Below, one piece after another: positions 715 through 6,371 of a DNA stretch of 6,549 nucleotides. Every line of letters starts with the position of its first letter. Position 1 is the first letter of the stretch. The notes under the pieces are model-generated. The model was not told the DNA's origin, did no database searches, and saw only the letters and a program-made list of their open reading frames with translations. Position numbers and translations under genes: made by a program. Source of the DNA: an archaeon. GTDB taxonomy: Archaea; Iainarchaeota; Iainarchaeia; Iainarchaeales; CSSED10-239. The stretch covers positions 10,021-16,569 of the forward strand of contig DAOOON010000016.1 in NCBI GenBank assembly GCA_035387745.1, read 5' to 3'.

Positions 715-777
715 ATGAAATTAACTAAAATACTAATATTTGTTTTTATATTGCTTTTTATGCAAAACCTTTTTGCA
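715..777 (+). other. Signal peptide (MKLTKILIFVFILLFMQNLFA)
   Basis: Basic N-terminus (K2, K5), a hydrophobic core of about 11 residues, then NLFA before FNP. Confidence 0.7.
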
Positions 778-3234
778 TTTAATCCTACGTTTTATGTAGG
801 AGATGGAGTTTCTGGAACAGACCCAAATTGTCAAAATCCAAATTATTCTTCTATTCAGGCAGCCGCTAATAGCATAAAAAACGACGCAATACAAAATGCA
901 ATAATCATTGTTTGCCAAGGCACATATACAGAAAACATAAATCTAACAGATTTTGAAAATTTATCAATTATTGGAGAGAATGACGAAGTAATTATAAAAT
1001 CTCCAGCAACAGAAGTTAGTCCATTACAAGTATTTTTTTCAACAAATATAGGTCTTAAGAATTTAAAAATAATAGAGCCGAATTTAAAAGGCGTTGTTCT
1101 CAATAATGTTATAGATGTAATTTTAGAAGACATAAGCGTATCAGAAATTAAAGGGATAGCACAAGGAGAATATAGTTTAGCTGGGATATATATTTCTGGT
1201 TCTGATAACGTGACTCTTAAAGGAGACATAAAAATTGAAGACGTAGATGCCAGTATAAAATATACAAACGGTATTGAAATCCGGAATTCTGAAGGCATTG
1301 TTTTTGATACAGATTTATTAGTTGTTTATAATATAAAATCCAGTAACAATGCAACAGATTCATTATTAACTGGAATTTTAATAAATAACTCAGATATAGA
1401 AATAAAATCAAACGTTACAATTAGTGAACTTAACGGAAGAAAAGACGTTATTGGTTTTTTAGCAGAAAATGACTCAGTAGTAACTAACGAAAACGAAATA
1501 AATATGGGGGTTACTCAATCAAGGTCTTTGTCTGTAATTAAGGGATTTGCAATAGAGAATTCTAGAATTAATCTTAATGACAATACTCGCACAAATTTTT
1601 TCAGTATTGGCGGATTTCAAGCAGACACTTATGCATTTTACTTAGATAATGCGCAAGTTTCATGGTTAGGGGAATTAGAATTTATAAGGGTTATTGGAGA
1701 AGATAAGAGTTATGGACTATATATAAATAATTCAGATAATTTTATAGTTTCAAAAATAGATACAGACAATACTCAAATTGAAGGAGAGGTGAGATTAATA
1801 TATATAAAAGACTCTGATTCTGGTCAAATTAAAAACATTACAAACGGCAATGAAGAAATTATGATTACTACAAATGATTTTAGAGTTTTAAATATAATTA
1901 ATTCTTCTGTTAAGGTAAATAAAATGAGAATAACCTCTAATAGAGATTTGCCAAACTGTATAGTTGCAGAAAATAATTCAAATATCGAGTTAGAAGATAT
2001 TGATTTAACAAATTGTTCTGGAAATTATATTAAAAATAATAATTCAGAGATATCAATTAAAAATTCTCCTACAATCAATCTTGCAAAAATACAGTATGAT
2101 CAAAGTCAAAATTCAATTGTAGAAGTTTATAAGCCAGTAAAATTATTACCCTATAAAGATGGAAGAGATTTAAAATTAGACGAATTATACATTTATCACG
2201 ATTCAAAATATTTCTCAAATATATTTAATCCAGAAACAGAAATAGAATATGATTTATTATATTTTACAAAAGGCTATAAAAATGGAGTATTAGATTCTAG
2301 TTTCTATAATGATTATTATTTTACTGGAATAAAGTCTAGAGTTAATGAAAAAAAAGAAAAAATCACAATTAATGATTTTTCTTTTCAAGAAATATATATT
2401 GAATTTTTTATTGTGCCTAACGAGTTTTTAGAACAAACCGCAAAAGCAGGGGTTACCACCAAAAATTCAGACCATTTTTCTGTCACAGATAAAACTTGTT
2501 CAAAAACACTTGATAAAAGTTATGGTTGTTTTGATATAAAATTGTCTTTAGCTTTAGAAGACACAGAAAATGAGAGTTATACTCTTAAATTTAAATTGCC
2601 TGTTTCTTGGTTAACACAAAAGAATCTAAAGAAAGACGAAATTGTACTTTATCATTTAGAAAATAACAAATATGTTGAACAAAAAACCACTCCTTTAACA
2701 ATAGTTGATAATTATCAGATATTCATTTCTGAAGTAGATTCTTTCTCAGAATTTCAAATTGCAGAAAAGAAAGACGTTTCTGATGTTGATGTCCCAAAGA
2801 ATGATACACCCCCAGAGACAACACCCCCAGTAACAGAACCGCCAGCAGATTCAAATCAAACAAATCCAAATTGTAATATTAAATGTACAGAGAACCAAAT
2901 TTTAGATTATATCAACTGTAAATGTATAGACAAACAGACAGGAGTCTGTGATTTAGTTTGCGATTCAAACGAATATTTAGATACAGAGTTATGTCAATGT
3001 TTTGATTTAGCAAATGCCGGTTGTAGAGGTGCTTGTAATGTTGGAGAAACAATGAATTTAACAACCTGTACTTGCGTTCCTGTTGTTCTTGACGGCATGC
3101 CAATTTCTCAAGCAAACAATTTCTGGAGTTTTGTTCTTATAGTTTTAGTAATAGTAATTGCAATTATAGTTTTCTTAATAATTAGGAAAAACAGAAAAAA
3201 TAAGTTAAAAAAGCAATCAAAGAAAAAGAAATAA
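715..3234 (+). CDS. Secreted, C-terminally membrane-anchored surface (glyco)protein: parallel beta-helix repeats, PGF-pre-PGF-like domain, Pro/Thr linker, 3 Cys-rich repeats, TM helix and basic tail
   Basis: 839-aa ORF with an SD. It has an N-terminal signal peptide. The SIQAAANSI...IIIVCQGTYTENINLTDFENLSIIGE motif is typical of the first turn of right-handed beta-helix proteins. A dozen repeats of about 22-25 aa follow, of the form G(I/F)x(I/L)xNS-x-h-x-h. I counted 18 N-x-S/T sequons by eye. There is a C-terminal TM helix followed by a Lys/Arg tail. Confidence 0.85.
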   Translation: MKLTKILIFVFILLFMQNLFAFNPTFYVGDGVSGTDPNCQNPNYSSIQAAANSIKNDAIQNAIIIVCQGTYTENINLTDFENLSIIGENDEVIIKSPATEVSPLQVFFSTNIGLKNLKIIEPNLKGVVLNNVIDVILEDISVSEIKGIAQGEYSLAGIYISGSDNVTLKGDIKIEDVDASIKYTNGIEIRNSEGIVFDTDLLVVYNIKSSNNATDSLLTGILINNSDIEIKSNVTISELNGRKDVIGFLAENDSVVTNENEINMGVTQSRSLSVIKGFAIENSRINLNDNTRTNFFSIGGFQADTYAFYLDNAQVSWLGELEFIRVIGEDKSYGLYINNSDNFIVSKIDTDNTQIEGEVRLIYIKDSDSGQIKNITNGNEEIMITTNDFRVLNIINSSVKVNKMRITSNRDLPNCIVAENNSNIELEDIDLTNCSGNYIKNNNSEISIKNSPTINLAKIQYDQSQNSIVEVYKPVKLLPYKDGRDLKLDELYIYHDSKYFSNIFNPETEIEYDLLYFTKGYKNGVLDSSFYNDYYFTGIKSRVNEKKEKITINDFSFQEIYIEFFIVPNEFLEQTAKAGVTTKNSDHFSVTDKTCSKTLDKSYGCFDIKLSLALEDTENESYTLKFKLPVSWLTQKNLKKDEIVLYHLENNKYVEQKTTPLTIVDNYQIFISEVDSFSEFQIAEKKDVSDVDVPKNDTPPETTPPVTEPPADSNQTNPNCNIKCTENQILDYINCKCIDKQTGVCDLVCDSNEYLDTELCQCFDLANAGCRGACNVGETMNLTTCTCVPVVLDGMPISQANNFWSFVLIVLVIVIAIIVFLIIRKNRKNKLKKQSKKKK
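787..2079 (+). other. Right-handed parallel beta-helix (PbH1-like) repeat region
   Basis: Recurrent segments include GIYISGSDNVTLKGDIKI, NGIEIRNSEGIVFDTD, TGILINNSDIEIKSNVTI, KGFAIENSRINLNDN, YGLYINNSDNFIVSKI and NCIVAENNSNIELEDIDLTNCSG. Boundaries are approximate. Confidence 0.6.
2437..2772 (+). other. PGF-pre-PGF-like archaeal surface-protein domain (approximate boundaries)
   Basis: YTLKFKLPVSWLTQKNLKKDEIVLYHLENNKYVEQKTTPLTIVDNYQIFISEVDSFSEFQIAE follows the pattern F-x-V-x-K-x-W-L...h-x-L-Y-R...W-x-x-L-x-T...Y-x-x-x-A-x-T-x-x-F-S-x-F-A-I that I recall for TIGR04213-type domains. Confidence 0.45.
2791..2871 (+). other. Pro/Thr-rich linker (VPKNDTPPETTPPVTEPPADSNQTNPN)
   Basis: Low-complexity P/T segment containing two N-x-T sequons. 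This is typical of an O- or N-glycosylated stalk in archaeal surface proteins. Confidence 0.6.
2872..3075 (+). repeat. Three tandem 25-aa-period Cys-rich protein repeats, C-x3-C-x10-C-x-C
   Basis: CNIKCTENQILDYINCKC, CDLVCDSNEYLDTELCQC and CRGACNVGETMNLTTCTC have identical Cys spacing, with 7 residues between units. The nucleotide sequences have diverged. Confidence 0.8.
3121..3231 (+). other. C-terminal transmembrane anchor (FWSFVLIVLVIVIAIIVFLII) plus basic cytoplasmic tail (RKNRKNKLKKQSKKKK)
   Basis: A 21-residue uncharged hydrophobic stretch is followed by 16 residues, of which 11 are K or R (positive-inside topology). Confidence 0.8.
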
Positions 3235-3251
3235 TTTTCTTTCTTTTTCTT
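3220..3251 (+). terminator. A/U-rich hairpin spanning the stop codon, plus a T-rich tract
   Basis: AAGAAAAAGAAA (3220-3231) is the perfect reverse complement of TTTCTTTTTCTT (3240-3251), with an 8-nt loop that contains the TAA stop. The T-rich run 3235-3251 would act as an archaeal oligo-T terminator. Confidence 0.4.
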
Positions 3252-3260
3252 AATCCAAAT

Positions 3261-3306
3261 CTTTAAAAACCCTAATATATTATATTTCTTTAGTTTCTTA
3301 TATTAT
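3261..3306 (+). promoter_or_regulatory. Promoter region for the ATPase gene with two TATA-like boxes
   Basis: CTTTAAAAACC (3261-3271) closely matches the box upstream of the tRNA (6251-6262). TTATATTA (3298-3305) lies about 20-24 nt upstream of ATG 3322, which fits a leaderless mRNA. No SD is visible upstream of 3322. Confidence 0.3.
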
Positions 3307-3321
3307 TAGATATTGATAAAT

Positions 3322-5943
3322 ATGGCTATAGAAAAAACCAAAAGCGATGGGACAGATCCTTTTGAAAAGATAGAGAAAGGTAAAAACGACAAAAGTATCT
3401 ATGAGTCCGTTCCAGAAGAAGAAAAAGCAGATGAAAAGAAAACCAAAACCACTGCGCGCGAGCCCGAGCGAAACCGGCTCAAAGAGATTACACCAAAACT
3501 TGAATTTTTAACAGATCCAGAAGATGAAACAATAGTCTATATCGGAAGAAAAAAATCAGTTCTAAAAGAACATGGCTCAAAGTCTTGTGCGTTTTTAGGT
3601 AAAGTCTATGAAGATGATTGCAGAGACAAGAAAGTTTATTTAGATGGTCTTAACCCACACGTAGTATTTATTGATGGTTCAAGAGGTTCAGGAAAAAGCT
3701 ATGGCCTTGGAGTTATTGCTGAAGAGCTAACTACAAACAACCCATATATCGGCCAGATAGTTGTTGATCCAGTTGGAGTCTTTTGGTCAATGAAATACCC
3801 AAATCAAGAAAAAAAAGAACTTGAGGAATTAAAAAAATGGGATTTACAAGCAAAAGGCCTAAATAATATTAAAGTCTTTGTGCCTGAAGGAGTGGTTGGC
3901 AAAGTCTCTAAAGAAACATATGACGAAACCTTTTCTATGTATCCTTCAATGCTTCTTGCAGACGACTGGTGCCTAACTTTTGGAATTGATAGATTTAATC
4001 CAACAGGGTTATTATTAGAAAAAACTTTATCTTTTGTTAAGCACGGTTATAAATCAGGAGACCCAAGCGAGCAAGAAAAAACAACAGAACAGATTCCTGC
4101 AAAAGGCAATCTCTATAATCTTGACGATATAGTTTTTTGTTTACAAAATGCTTATGAATTTAAGTCTTCTTCTTCTGGTTACAAGCAAGACTCTATTAGA
4201 GCATTAGTTTCTAGATTTGAAGCCGCAAAGTCTTGGGGCATCTTTAGTGATCATGGAACTCCCCTTTCAAAACTTTCAAAAGAAAAGCAACTAACAATTC
4301 TTGATACTAGTTTTTTAGATGATAATATTACTGCTCTTGTTATTGGTATACTAGCACGAAGAATACTTTCTGCAAGAAAGCTTGTGACTAGACAAGACGC
4401 AATTAAAAAGTTTGATTCAAATTCAGAAAGCCCAGACGAGCTACTTGAAATTTCAATTCCCCCAACCTGGGTATATATTGATGAAGCCCACACTCTTATT
4501 CCTTCAGGAAACACCATAACTCCTGCAACTAATGCCATAATTGAATATGTTAAGCAAGGAAGAAGACCTGGCTGTTCAATGGTTCTAGCTACTCAACAAC
4601 CTTCAGCAATAAATTCTAAAGTATTATCTCAAGTTGATATTTTCTTAAGCCACAAATTAGTATTTAACGACGATATTCATGCTGTCCAGAAAAGAATGCC
4701 AGCAATTATTCCTGAAGCCTACAAGGACCCAAATTTTATTAAAACTCTTCCAGTCGGTGTGGCTTTAACAGGAGACAGAGGCGAAGAAACCAAAAGAGCT
4801 TTTATTCTTAAGATTAAACCAAGATTAAGTCAGCATGAAGGCAGAGACGCAGAAACCATTAGAGAGGTTCCAACTCTTTCCAAGAAGGAAATAATCAATT
4901 TCTGCTCAGACATGATCTACAAAAAATTATTGTCTTCAAAAACTCTTAAGACTAGTGATGCTAAAGACATTCTTGATGTTGTTAATTCTAAATATAATAG
5001 CGATGTTGTTTTTGATGAGATTTTAGTATCTCTAAGCAAGATGGGAATTTCTGAAAAAGACAACATTTTGTATTTTGAAAATAAAAACACTAAACAAAAA
5101 ACAGAAATCCCTAAAGATGAAATTCAAGATATCAATCGCGCAATTGAAAAATCAAATGAGCTTTCAGAAATATCAGAAGATATGCCATTAACTCCAGAAG
5201 AAATTGTGCCAGACAGCCTGCCAGTAATCCCTTCAAGAATCTCAAGAGACATAGCAATAAATATTGCAAACAGCACAAATAAGAAAAAGTTTTTATTTTT
5301 AAGAGAAGAAGGAATTATTTCTCAAGTTACTATGATTTATAGAAAAGTTTACAAGATTAATTTTAATATCTTTGATGAAGACGAAAACTATAAAACTTCA
5401 ACTTGCTTTATTGATTCTGTGTCTGGAGAGTTTATACATTTTGATGGCAGAAACTTTAAAGCTTCAAACGGCTTTAAGTTAGTTGAAGAGCTAAGCGTTG
5501 ACGATATTGTTCTTTTAGATAGTATCTTTGCTTGGAAAACCCCTGAAGAATTATCTGAGATTTTAGGATTTGATGCAAGAGAAATAAAACAAGACTTGAT
5601 TTCTTTAGTTGATAGAAACCTTGCTGACGTTGATATTATTAATAAAAAAGAAAGCTTTAGAATAAAGAGAAGAATAGATTTGCCATTCCACCCAGGATAT
5701 GATATTCTTACTTCAATAAACCATTTACCATTAAAGAAACAATTAATTTCTAAATCTGATATTCAAGAAGAAATATCCGAAGAAATCATTGTTAGCAGAT
5801 TAGAAAAATTATGGCCAGACATCGAGATAACGGAAATCTCTGAGATCTTCTGGCCTCTTTGGGAAATTATCTCAAAAGACAAGAGAGCAAATCAAAGAGC
5901 AATTATTGTTGATGCAGTTATTGGTCAAATCATTGATGCATAA
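3322..5943 (+). CDS. HerA/FtsK-clade P-loop ATPase (COG0433/DUF87-like core) with a charged N-terminal tail and a roughly 360-aa C-terminal extension containing a wHTH-like segment
   Basis: Motifs are collinear with HerA: VYLDGLNPHVVFIDGSRGSGKS (Walker A), VVDPVGVFW, LTILDTSFL...ALVIGILARRI, WVYIDEAHTLIP (Walker B), QGRRPGCSMVLATQQPSAI..VLSQVD, LPVGVALTG and KPRLSQHEGRD. The ORF track opens at TTG 3313; I prefer ATG 3322 (MAIEK...). Stop is TAA 5941-5943. Confidence 0.85.
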   Translation: MAIEKTKSDGTDPFEKIEKGKNDKSIYESVPEEEKADEKKTKTTAREPERNRLKEITPKLEFLTDPEDETIVYIGRKKSVLKEHGSKSCAFLGKVYEDDCRDKKVYLDGLNPHVVFIDGSRGSGKSYGLGVIAEELTTNNPYIGQIVVDPVGVFWSMKYPNQEKKELEELKKWDLQAKGLNNIKVFVPEGVVGKVSKETYDETFSMYPSMLLADDWCLTFGIDRFNPTGLLLEKTLSFVKHGYKSGDPSEQEKTTEQIPAKGNLYNLDDIVFCLQNAYEFKSSSSGYKQDSIRALVSRFEAAKSWGIFSDHGTPLSKLSKEKQLTILDTSFLDDNITALVIGILARRILSARKLVTRQDAIKKFDSNSESPDELLEISIPPTWVYIDEAHTLIPSGNTITPATNAIIEYVKQGRRPGCSMVLATQQPSAINSKVLSQVDIFLSHKLVFNDDIHAVQKRMPAIIPEAYKDPNFIKTLPVGVALTGDRGEETKRAFILKIKPRLSQHEGRDAETIREVPTLSKKEIINFCSDMIYKKLLSSKTLKTSDAKDILDVVNSKYNSDVVFDEILVSLSKMGISEKDNILYFENKNTKQKTEIPKDEIQDINRAIEKSNELSEISEDMPLTPEEIVPDSLPVIPSRISRDIAINIANSTNKKKFLFLREEGIISQVTMIYRKVYKINFNIFDEDENYKTSTCFIDSVSGEFIHFDGRNFKASNGFKLVEELSVDDIVLLDSIFAWKTPEELSEILGFDAREIKQDLISLVDRNLADVDIINKKESFRIKRRIDLPFHPGYDILTSINHLPLKKQLISKSDIQEEISEEIIVSRLEKLWPDIEITEISEIFWPLWEIISKDKRANQRAIIVDAVIGQIIDA
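3676..3699 (+). other. Walker A / P-loop (GSRGSGKS)
   Basis: G-x4-GK-S, read directly in frame. Confidence 0.9.
4468..4488 (+). other. Walker B (WVYIDEAH)
   Basis: A hydrophobic strand followed by DE. HerA proteins typically show h-h-h-h-EEAH at this position. Confidence 0.85.
5476..5670 (+). other. Winged-helix-turn-helix-like segment in the ATPase C-terminal extension (approximate)
   Basis: LSVDDIVLLDSIFAWKTPEELSEILGFDAREIKQDLISLVDRNLADVDIINKKESFRIKRR has the helix / helix-turn-helix / beta-wing pattern of MarR/TrmB-type wHTH domains. By-eye call only. Confidence 0.4.
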
Positions 5944-5956
5944 AAGTGAAATAATC

Positions 5957-6292
5957 ATGTTAGATCTACTTAAGAAAAAAGAAGAAAAATCTTTAAGCAT
6001 TGATTCTTTTATTTTAGATAGCTGTAAAGCAACGCCAGGTTTTGAGTTCTTTCCAAAAAAGCCAATAAAGATTGATTTAGAAAAATTATTAATGAAACTA
6101 AGAACTAAAAATTACTATATAGAAAAAGATAATTCTCCGTTTTTAATAATTTTAAAAACAAAAAAAGGCACAGTAACTATCTTTTCATCTCTAAAGATAA
6201 TTATCAGAGACACCACTCAGGAAAAAGTTGCTAAAGTCATTTTAACAGATCTTTTAAAAACCATAAACGAATTTTTATATAAGCAAGGGTGA
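5957..6292 (+). CDS. Small hypothetical protein (about 111 aa); C-terminal half resembles a single TBP-fold repeat
   Basis: The ORF is open from 5906. ATG 5957 is the first start after the upstream stop and is preceded by AAGTGA 8 nt upstream. ATG 5936 would overlap the ATPase stop by 8 nt and is an alternative. KIDLEKLL...GTVTIFSSLKIIIRDTTQEKVAKVILTDLLKTI resembles the LDLEKV...ALLIFSSGKLVVTGAKS-helix pattern of archaeal TBP repeats. TGA stop is at 6290-6292. Confidence 0.6.
   Translation: MLDLLKKKEEKSLSIDSFILDSCKATPGFEFFPKKPIKIDLEKLLMKLRTKNYYIEKDNSPFLIILKTKKGTVTIFSSLKIIIRDTTQEKVAKVILTDLLKTINEFLYKQG
6251..6262 (+). promoter_or_regulatory. TATA-like box CTTTTAAAAACC, candidate tRNA-Ser promoter, embedded in the 3' end of the small CDS
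   Basis: It is centred about 26-27 nt upstream of the tRNA 5' end (6283), the canonical archaeal TATA-to-start distance. A near-identical box lies at 3261-3271. Confidence 0.4.
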
Positions 6293-6371
6293 CTGAGTCT
6301 GGTTGAAGGTGCTAGTCTCGAAAACTAGATGCGTGTAACAGCGCACATGGGTTCAAATCCCATCCCTTGCG
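6283..6371 (+). tRNA. tRNA-Ser (anticodon CGA), class II with long variable arm, no encoded CCA
   Basis: Acceptor stem GCAAGGG (6283-6289) pairs with CCCTTGC (6364-6370), with discriminator G6371. The D stem is 3 bp, ACT/GGT, with a GG-containing loop. Anticodon stem CTAGT (6312-6316)/ACTAG (6324-6328) has loop CTCGAAA, giving anticodon CGA (6319-6321). Variable arm is TGCG(6330-6333)/CGCA(6342-6345). T arm is ATGGG/CCCAT with loop TTCAAAT. Confidence 0.92.

Follow-up and report, generated by a model that had tools for sequence, protein, structure and literature searches.

The window analysed here, a stretch of 6,549 nucleotides from contig DAOOON010000016.1 of assembly GCA_035387745.1, belongs to an archaeon of the DPANN phylum Iainarchaeota (Diapherotrites), has a GC content of 30% and contains four co-oriented genes and one tRNA gene. 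The gene of interest (5957..6292, + strand) encodes a small protein of 111 residues that resembles a single lobe of the TATA-box binding protein (TBP), as indicated by its open reading frame (ORF), its Pfam TBP match, AlphaFold2 (AF2) prediction, Foldseek and hhalign comparisons, and the ratio of nonsynonymous to synonymous substitutions (dN/dS). It sits between the gene of an 873-residue P-loop ATPase of the HerA/FtsK superfamily (3322..5943, + strand; DUF87 and HerA matches) and a tRNA-Ser(CGA) gene detected by ARAGORN (6283..6371, + strand).

The small ORF runs from an ATG at 5957 to a TGA stop at 6290-6292, and is separated by a spacer of 13 nt from the TAA stop of the ATPase gene at 5941-5943. 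An earlier note on this DNA, made from the sequence alone, had placed a small ORF close behind the ATPase stop; both this placement and the peptide it quoted proved correct. Another ATG at 5936 is in frame and would overlap the ATPase stop, but the start at 5957 is better supported, because most homologues begin with MLDLL or MLNLL, matching this start, and because a Shine-Dalgarno (SD)-like AAGTGA (5945..5950, + strand, by direct sequence reading), 6 nt upstream of the ATG and within the spacer, is conserved. The TAAAAGTGA...ATG junction is kept in the related loci L001, L005 and L011, with AAGTGT in L008, and the sites before other genes of the window read GAGGTG or GGTGA. Codon comparison gave a dN/dS of 0.04-0.14 for the small gene (six computable of seven gap-free relatives). 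Judged from its sequence, the small ORF is a real translated gene under purifying selection.

Profile search with the small protein alone matched Pfam TBP (PF00352) with a score of 25.0 bits over a cut-off of 22.9 (E=1.7e-5), aligning residues 37-106 to profile positions 15-85, and 25 of 30 diverse family members matched the same profile independently. Using the family profile against PDB sequences, the top 35 matches were all TBPs, the best being that of M. jannaschii (2z8u, E=1.3e-10), and the first non-TBP protein appeared at E=0.24. Comparison by hhalign of the family against the canonical two-repeat TBPs of related genomes gave a probability of 95.9% with E=5.7e-9 over 70 columns, extending from helix H1 to helix H2. 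The curated TBP score is not reached, as the small protein obtained 17.1 and 15.1 bits against the NCBIfam TBP models, compared to cut-offs of 181 and 278. The AF2 model, built from a 22-sequence alignment with a pLDDT of 89.7 and a pTM of 0.81, has the order β(18-22), β(28-33), α(41-50), four strands and α(89-109), namely β-β-α-β4-α. This corresponds to the S1-H1-S2-S3-S4-S5-H2 lobe order of TBP plus one additional strand, which is predicted to be formed by the N-terminal residues and to pair with the S1-equivalent strand. Structural similarity search using Foldseek against the PDB returned TBPs first (1ais, probability 1.00, RMSD of 2.6 Å over 81 columns), with RNase H3 lower; against viral models, the relevantly named matches were giant-virus TBP-like proteins. 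The 111 residues accommodate one lobe and no further domain, and the two tandem repeats (~180 residues) of canonical TBP are absent, as is the RNase H catalytic domain of RNase HIII.

Altogether, the TBP-like pattern goes well past what chance would give, and the small protein is supported as a divergent stand-alone single TBP-fold domain, homologous to one TBP repeat from H1 to H2. The earlier note had proposed such a domain, and the Pfam, PDB-profile, hhalign, AF2 and Foldseek results agree with it, TBP matches coming first both in the profile searches (Pfam, hhalign) and in the search with the predicted monomer (Foldseek). The second Pfam match was the N-terminal domain family of RNase HIII, DUF3378, with an E-value of 0.055 that lies below its cut-off. 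The N-domain of RNase HIII is bacterial and always fused to the RNase H catalytic domain. It shares with the small protein the single TBP lobe, as well as weak Pfam and Foldseek similarity, whereas the small protein is free-standing and closer to TBP proper, as the two Pfam E-values indicate.

Compared to canonical archaeal TBP, the small protein has the α/β lobe fold with homology from H1 to H2. Each TBP repeat carries two DNA-kinking phenylalanines, and Phe62 and Phe76 of the small protein are their equivalents: Phe62 lies at the start of S2, Phe76 belongs to the F-x-SGK strand and is nearly invariant in the family, and both are kept here. Lysines Lys67, Lys69 and Lys80 are conserved on the strands of the sheet. 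Differences lie in the number of lobes, one instead of two, in the TGA turn of TBP, replaced in the family by K/R-D/E/N, and in an N-terminal hairpin with a cysteine that TBP does not have. This residue, Cys23, is the sole invariant column across the 30 diverse members. The earlier note had also remarked on SLK in place of SGK and on the loss of TGA, which is true of the subtype in the window (FSSLK, with Gly changed to Leu), whereas the wider family keeps F/Y-x-SGK-I-x-V-K. Moreover, relatives encode a separate canonical TBP; in L008 and L011 such proteins of 180-183 residues are encoded ~7 kb downstream and share only ~21% identity with the small protein over 70 aligned columns.

A word-indexed search returned 40 close homologues in metagenome-assembled genomes (MAGs) of DPANN archaea named ‘archaeon’ or ‘Candidatus ainarchaeum’. 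Among 1.84 billion representatives, searched exhaustively with a profile, 67 proteins matched, nearly all stand-alone and 81-123 residues long; two canonical TBPs were among the weakest matches, and the long proteins look like low-complexity matches. Where a source is named, it is a Diapherotrites/Iainarchaeota, Thermoplasmata or ‘Euryarchaeota’ MAG. Homologues of 86-111 residues are conserved in dozens of species, and those at Iainarchaeota loci fall into three sequence types with about 25-30% identity between types. Type 1, to which the protein of the window belongs, carries FILDSCKATPGFEF ... FSSLKIIIR; type 2 carries LCDSNLSYEF ... YPSGKILVKN ... LNxCPS, with a second conserved cysteine at the C-terminus (N-x-C-P-S); and type 3 carries PCxSRTxxEFxPKK ... 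FKSGKIxVK. The C-termini are varied, with no conserved GG terminus. A ubiquitin-like TBP-fold protein ending in GG (PMC2948915) was considered and rejected, as the C-termini vary and are set by the overlapping tRNA. A viral or defence-system origin was likewise rejected, given that the small protein has no PADLOC match, its context is that of housekeeping genes and the viral fold matches are only giant-virus TBPs. In public databases the family members are inconsistently labelled ‘ribonuclease HIII’, ‘TATA-box binding protein’, ‘ArsR family metal-binding transcriptional regulator’ or ‘hypothetical’. The first of these labels, given by JGI to some homologues, is a domain-level mislabel, and the source of the third, also a JGI label, was not found among NCBIfam and Pfam models, where only TBP matched, or in papers.

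Monopartite TBP-domain proteins of Archaea were described in 2013, when a haloarchaeal TbpA and a group of 82-136 residues in Thermococcales were found via PF00352 (Brindefalk et al., NAR 41:2832, PMC3597702). These proteins were shown not to be truncated TBPs, and a free single lobe was argued to lend credibility to a monomeric TBP ancestor (PMC3597702). The present protein resembles them as an untruncated, stand-alone polypeptide of ~100 residues with one TBP domain that matches PF00352 and has diverged from the TBP of its lineage; it is shorter than 150 residues, has exactly one TBP domain and lies in no larger ORF, as in the definition of that group, and the same argument applies to both: one lobe suffices for function. 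It differs in its occurrence in Iainarchaeota (DPANN) rather than Euryarchaeota, in its N-terminal strand with the invariant cysteine, in the SLK that replaces SGK in the type found in the window, and in the ATPase linkage and tRNA-Ser overlap set out below, the Thermococcales group being compared by description only. The free-standing single TBP-domain protein is already a published archaeal class, to which its occurrence in DPANN and its link to an ATPase are added here; our literature search turned up no account of DPANN members of this class, nor of any association with HerA-like ATPases. The suggestion in the earlier note that such a protein bears on the duplication origin of TBP holds as an argument, but has already been published (PMC3597702).

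To place the gene pair in related genomes, an alignment of the ATPases was used to scan one genome per GTDB species, giving 62 loci, almost all from Iainarchaeota, in whose six-frame ORFs the small gene was detected by the profile hidden Markov model (HMM) of the family. The small gene lies immediately downstream of the ATPase gene on the same strand in 23 of the 62 loci, and 2.8-4 kb downstream in three more. Neighbour-joining analysis of the ATPase core places all adjacent pairs in two clades, with 15/15 loci of clade A, which includes the window, and 11/12 loci of clade B; the pair is thus found together and co-oriented in 26/27 loci. Clade A has spacers of 11-37 nt and clade B of 14-81 nt, while the ATPase identity to that of the window falls to 37-45% across the two clades. 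The tree of the small protein mirrors the ATPase clades, type 1 being that of clade A and type 2 that of clade B, and the close relatives of the window always have the pair. The flanking genes vary between and within the two clades, and comprise PCNA, unknown membrane proteins, CAP/Band_7 and a convergent class-III-signal protein. The chromosomal context of the pair, with PCNA, tRNA genes, ribosomal protein genes and TBP, is one of housekeeping and not a defence island. Both clades have a tRNA-Ser(CGA) gene in the vicinity, pointing to a single ancestral arrangement.

The spacer between the ATPase and the small gene is the shortest in the window and has no room for a promoter. The region before the ATPase gene (3235..3321, + strand) is AT-rich with TATA-like runs and lacks an SD sequence, and is the probable promoter of both genes; a scan for sigma-70 promoters and terminators is uninformative for an archaeon. 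A promoter-proximal first cistron followed by an SD-bearing internal cistron is the usual archaeal pattern. Given the 13-nt spacer, the SD-like site, the lack of promoter room in the spacer and the AT-rich, SD-less region upstream of the ATPase gene, the two genes are very probably co-transcribed in this lineage.

For the ATPase itself, the start at ATG 3322 is likelier than that at TTG 3313, homologues beginning with MAIEK or MAVEK. The protein matches Pfam DUF87 (E=7.6e-10), HerA in the PDB (E=1.8e-8), and HerA (1.6e-17) and mad8 (4.5e-15) in PADLOC, but against the NCBIfam HerA equivalogs it scores 22-38 bits, far below all cut-offs of 800-970. These scores identify it as a distant member of the HerA/FtsK superfamily. 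The Walker A motif GSRGSGKS (3676..3699, + strand) and the Walker B motif WVYIDEAH (4468-4491, + strand), both located by script, are intact in the window and invariant in the ATPase alignment. The core (residues ~60-510) is 80-98% conserved within the clade, compared to 18-60% for the C-terminal extension of 360 residues (~510-873). In the AF2 model of this extension (window 4813-5940, pLDDT 83.9), a winged helix, a β-rich module, a second winged helix and a C-terminal β-rich module follow one another. The first predicted winged helix-turn-helix (4882..5076, + strand; model residues 24-88, pLDDT about 90) is supported by AF2 and Foldseek, and the second (5473..5664, + strand; model residues 221-284) is TrmB/MarR-like by AF2 and by the Pfam matches of orthologues, which hit TrmB, HTH_27 or HTH_IclR above cut-off at this position. 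Foldseek showed that the winged helices resemble those of ArsR, MarR and TFE-alpha. A TBP-like module in the extension, which would suggest a heterodimeric saddle, was sought and rejected, as the HMM matches were weak and all fell on a single helix within the first winged helix, and as hhalign gave a probability of 0.5%.

The C-terminal β-rich module (5698..5940, + strand) is PepSY-like by AF2 and by orthologues that match Pfam PepSY at the extreme C-terminus with 24.9-34.4 bits over a cut-off of 24; the extension of the window ATPase itself did not reach significance against Pfam PepSY. The module ends with IIVDAVIGQIIDA, and the PepSY-like module between the winged helices carries the motif FIDSVSGEFIHF. 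The pattern h-h-D-x-V-x-G-x-h-I is found twice in the window ATPase, as FIDSVSGEFI and IVDAVIGQII. PepSY modules are unusual on a cytoplasmic HerA-like ATPase. In the otherwise variable, acidic N-terminal tail of the clade-A ATPases, the segment KSDGxDPF (window 3340-3363) is conserved and may be a docking motif. The ATPase ORFs in L051, L059, L061 and L066 have 1405-1543 residues, about 400-500 more than others, and tblastn matches span the extra sequence, which may consist of insertions such as inteins.

HerA acts with NurA in repair and with effectors in anti-phage systems, and FtsK has a C-terminal winged-helix gamma domain. The present pair resembles these modules in joining an ATPase of the superfamily to a small co-oriented partner gene, and resembles FtsK in its C-terminal winged helices. 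However, the partner is a TBP lobe and not of the NurA, Sir2 or DUF4297 type, and it has no PADLOC match; unlike HerA defence modules, the ATPase falls below the HerA equivalog cut-offs, stands in a housekeeping context and bears PepSY-like modules in its extension.

The 3' end of the small ORF overlaps the tRNA-Ser(CGA) gene by 10-11 nt. Its final two codons come from the 5' strand of the acceptor stem, GCAAGGG (GCAAG(G/A)G across loci), and nucleotides 8-10 of the tRNA serve as its TGA stop (GCAAGGG|TGA|CTGAGT). The overlap is kept in 12/12 clade-A loci examined, while the C-terminal residues differ (QG, QE or QR); the loci concerned are the window, L001, L005, L008, L011, L016, L018-L023 and L070. 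In six loci of clade B, tRNA-Ser(CGA) lies 0.4-2.4 kb downstream on the opposite strand. Such an overlap implies either that mRNA and tRNA are co-transcribed, so that RNase P would cut the stop codon off the mRNA, or that the tRNA is transcribed from a promoter within the ORF. An overlap between a single-TBP-lobe gene and tRNA-Ser was not found in the literature searched. The public forms of 123 residues (P0002, P0003, P0030 and others; L002-type calls) end with ...KQGWLSPVEGASLEN and are annotation artefacts, in which the TGA stop is read as Trp and translation continues into the tRNA gene.

Two further genes precede the ATPase gene in the window. The first (51-644) encodes a protein of 197 residues with an RNase H fold (PF13482, PF10108) that is related to the 3'-5' exonuclease domain of family B DNA polymerases; in L011, a gene of this type is directly upstream of the ATPase gene. 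The second (715-3234) encodes 839 residues with a PGF-pre-PGF match (TIGR04213, E=1.4e-7), a signal-peptide-like N-terminus and, near the C-terminus, Cys-rich repeats followed by a transmembrane segment and a Lys-rich tail, and is likely a surface protein. Relatives such as L011 have no gene for it at the corresponding position.

The best explanation, which we regard as moderately probable, is that the small protein is a genuine conserved single TBP-lobe protein, made from one transcript with the ATPase and serving as a DNA-binding accessory of the ring ATPase. In the proposed transcript, the ATPase gene, which lacks an SD sequence, would come first after the promoter, and the small gene would follow as an internal cistron with its own SD-like site. 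A single TBP lobe has been treated as a simple unit for binding of double-stranded nucleic acid (Ravarani et al. 2020, PMC7221094), and the N-domain of RNase HIII is a single lobe that binds duplex nucleic acid on its own (PMC7221094, PMC3597702). By analogy with TBP and RNase HIII, the basic small protein (pI 9.57) would bind duplex nucleic acid via the face of its β-sheet; from its position in the operon, it may select DNA for the ring ATPase or hold it there, while the ATPase itself would contact DNA through its winged helices. Its active form could be the monomer, as for the N-domain of RNase HIII, or a homodimer shaped into a saddle resembling that of TBP. Dimerization into a saddle, which the earlier note held to be necessary, is not required, because one lobe alone can bind a duplex, as the RNase HIII N-domain does.

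Several observations weigh against this reading. The small gene does not adjoin the ATPase gene at ~24 orthologous loci for which 1 kb or more of sequence is available downstream; in the other ATPase clades the ATPase gene is usually followed by a convergent cluster encoding a hexapeptide-repeat transferase, a phosphoglucosamine-mutase-like and a GlmS-like protein, as read from ORF translations. In L040 and L059 a type-3 gene follows this three-gene cluster, 4 kb from the ATPase gene, and the type-3 members of L012-L015 are encoded away from any such ATPase, so the family functions without the ATPase in many genomes. No fusion of ATPase and TBP lobe of the Rosetta-stone kind was found among the ATPase sequences of the fetched loci, and neither HMM nor hhalign detected a TBP-like module in the ATPase. 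Tight spacing is weak evidence in DPANN genomes, given their compactness and synteny, and the loci used for adjacency all come from one phylum. A high pI is also weak evidence for nucleic-acid binding, as lysine-richness is expected at 30% GC. Finally, residues 1-36, including the invariant cysteine, have no counterpart in TBP alignments and appear to point to a property that TBP does not have.

A linkage that is real, old and clade-restricted is thus indicated, which is suggestive of a functional partnership but does not prove it. The coupling to the ATPase that the earlier note suggested stands for the 26/27 paired loci, with their SD-like site and, in the window, the 13-nt spacer; it fails in the ~24 loci without the small gene and finds no fusion in its favour. 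Likewise, the co-occurrence of the pair in related genomes that it proposed to check holds in clades A and B and is not general to either partner.

Type-3 genes have surroundings of their own. In L013 (6001-8311) and L014 (6001-8157), which are unrelated contigs, the next genes on the same strand encode a membrane protein (Yip1/DUF4013) and a site-2 protease (Peptidase_M50), an arrangement that may be another conserved context of the family; that type-1 loci share it was rejected, since no such domains lie downstream in clade A. L014 also carries the same three Pfam families as the convergent cluster.

The strongest alternative, which we consider possible though rather doubtful, holds that the small protein is an independent, general nucleic-acid-binding or chromatin/transcription-associated factor, and that it stands behind the ATPase gene because a compact genome has kept its old gene order and not because the two proteins are physical or functional partners. 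The members without ATPase adjacency in L012-L015, the roughly half of orthologous ATPase loci without the small gene, the separation by three convergent genes in L040 and L059 and the lack of fusions are all consistent with such a factor, as is the partly kept synteny of clade A (tRNA-Ser genes, tRNA_bind, KTSC, BacA and Glycos_trans_3N), by which adjacency there is not fully independent. It accounts less well for the persistence of the pair in two deeply separated ATPase clades whose immediate flanks differ, for the shortest spacers of the window and the conserved SD-like site, and for a small-protein tree that mirrors the ATPase clades.

A more far-reaching proposal would have the single lobe homodimerize to a symmetric TBP-like saddle on AT-rich DNA that the co-transcribed ATPase, with its winged helices, loads, moves or strips. 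We consider this improbable. The two repeats of TBP meet at the S1 edge, and the extra N-terminal strand predicted beside the S1-equivalent edge could therefore block or extend a TBP-like dimer. If true, the pair would be an unprecedented two-gene DNA-handling machine, functionally reminiscent of TBP-Mot1, and would preserve to this day the homodimeric state that the TBP ancestor is postulated to have had before its duplication.

It is very improbable, in our estimate, that the TBP-like fold serves a function other than DNA binding, with the invariant cysteine marking a thiol-, metal- or redox-dependent role or that of a protein-protein adaptor. Such roles are documented for TBP-like domains, including adaptins, COPG and the C-termini of E1-like enzymes (PMC3597702, PMC2948915), and Cys23, without a TBP counterpart, is joined in type-2 proteins by the cysteine of the conserved N-x-C-P-S; the JGI label of a metal-binding regulator on several members would also fit. 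However, a single cysteine cannot make a metal site alone, the ‘ArsR family metal-binding’ label is untraceable to any model or paper, a conserved GG terminus is lacking, and the family keeps both the F-x-SGK phenylalanine and the basic residues on the strands, as is typical of TBP lobes that bind DNA.

Most single-domain ‘TBP’ entries in databases were found by Brindefalk et al. to be misannotated full TBPs (PMC3597702). That the small ORF likewise represents half of a canonical TBP gene, cut short or wrongly annotated, or the remnant of a pseudogene, is refuted by the ATPase stop 13 nt upstream and the tRNA over its own stop, which leave no room for a second repeat, by the conservation of 86-111 residues in dozens of species at a dN/dS of 0.04-0.14, and by an identity of only about 21% to the canonical TBPs encoded nearby in relatives.

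The preferred reading, a genuine single-lobe protein that would assist the ring ATPase, bears on a wider question. Stand-alone TBP lobes are a proposed stepping stone from a single nucleic-acid-binding domain to the duplicated TBP of archaea and eukaryotes, and we know of no stand-alone TBP lobe with a known function or partner. The result corrects the public labels ‘ribonuclease HIII’, ‘TATA-box binding protein’ and ‘ArsR family metal-binding regulator’ on members of the family. The family gives the stand-alone TBP lobe its first conserved genomic partner, a candidate one, in the form of a HerA/FtsK-type ATPase with winged helices, and this partner, together with the family-specific invariant cysteine, leads to testable hypotheses on binding, oligomeric state and dependence on the ATPase.

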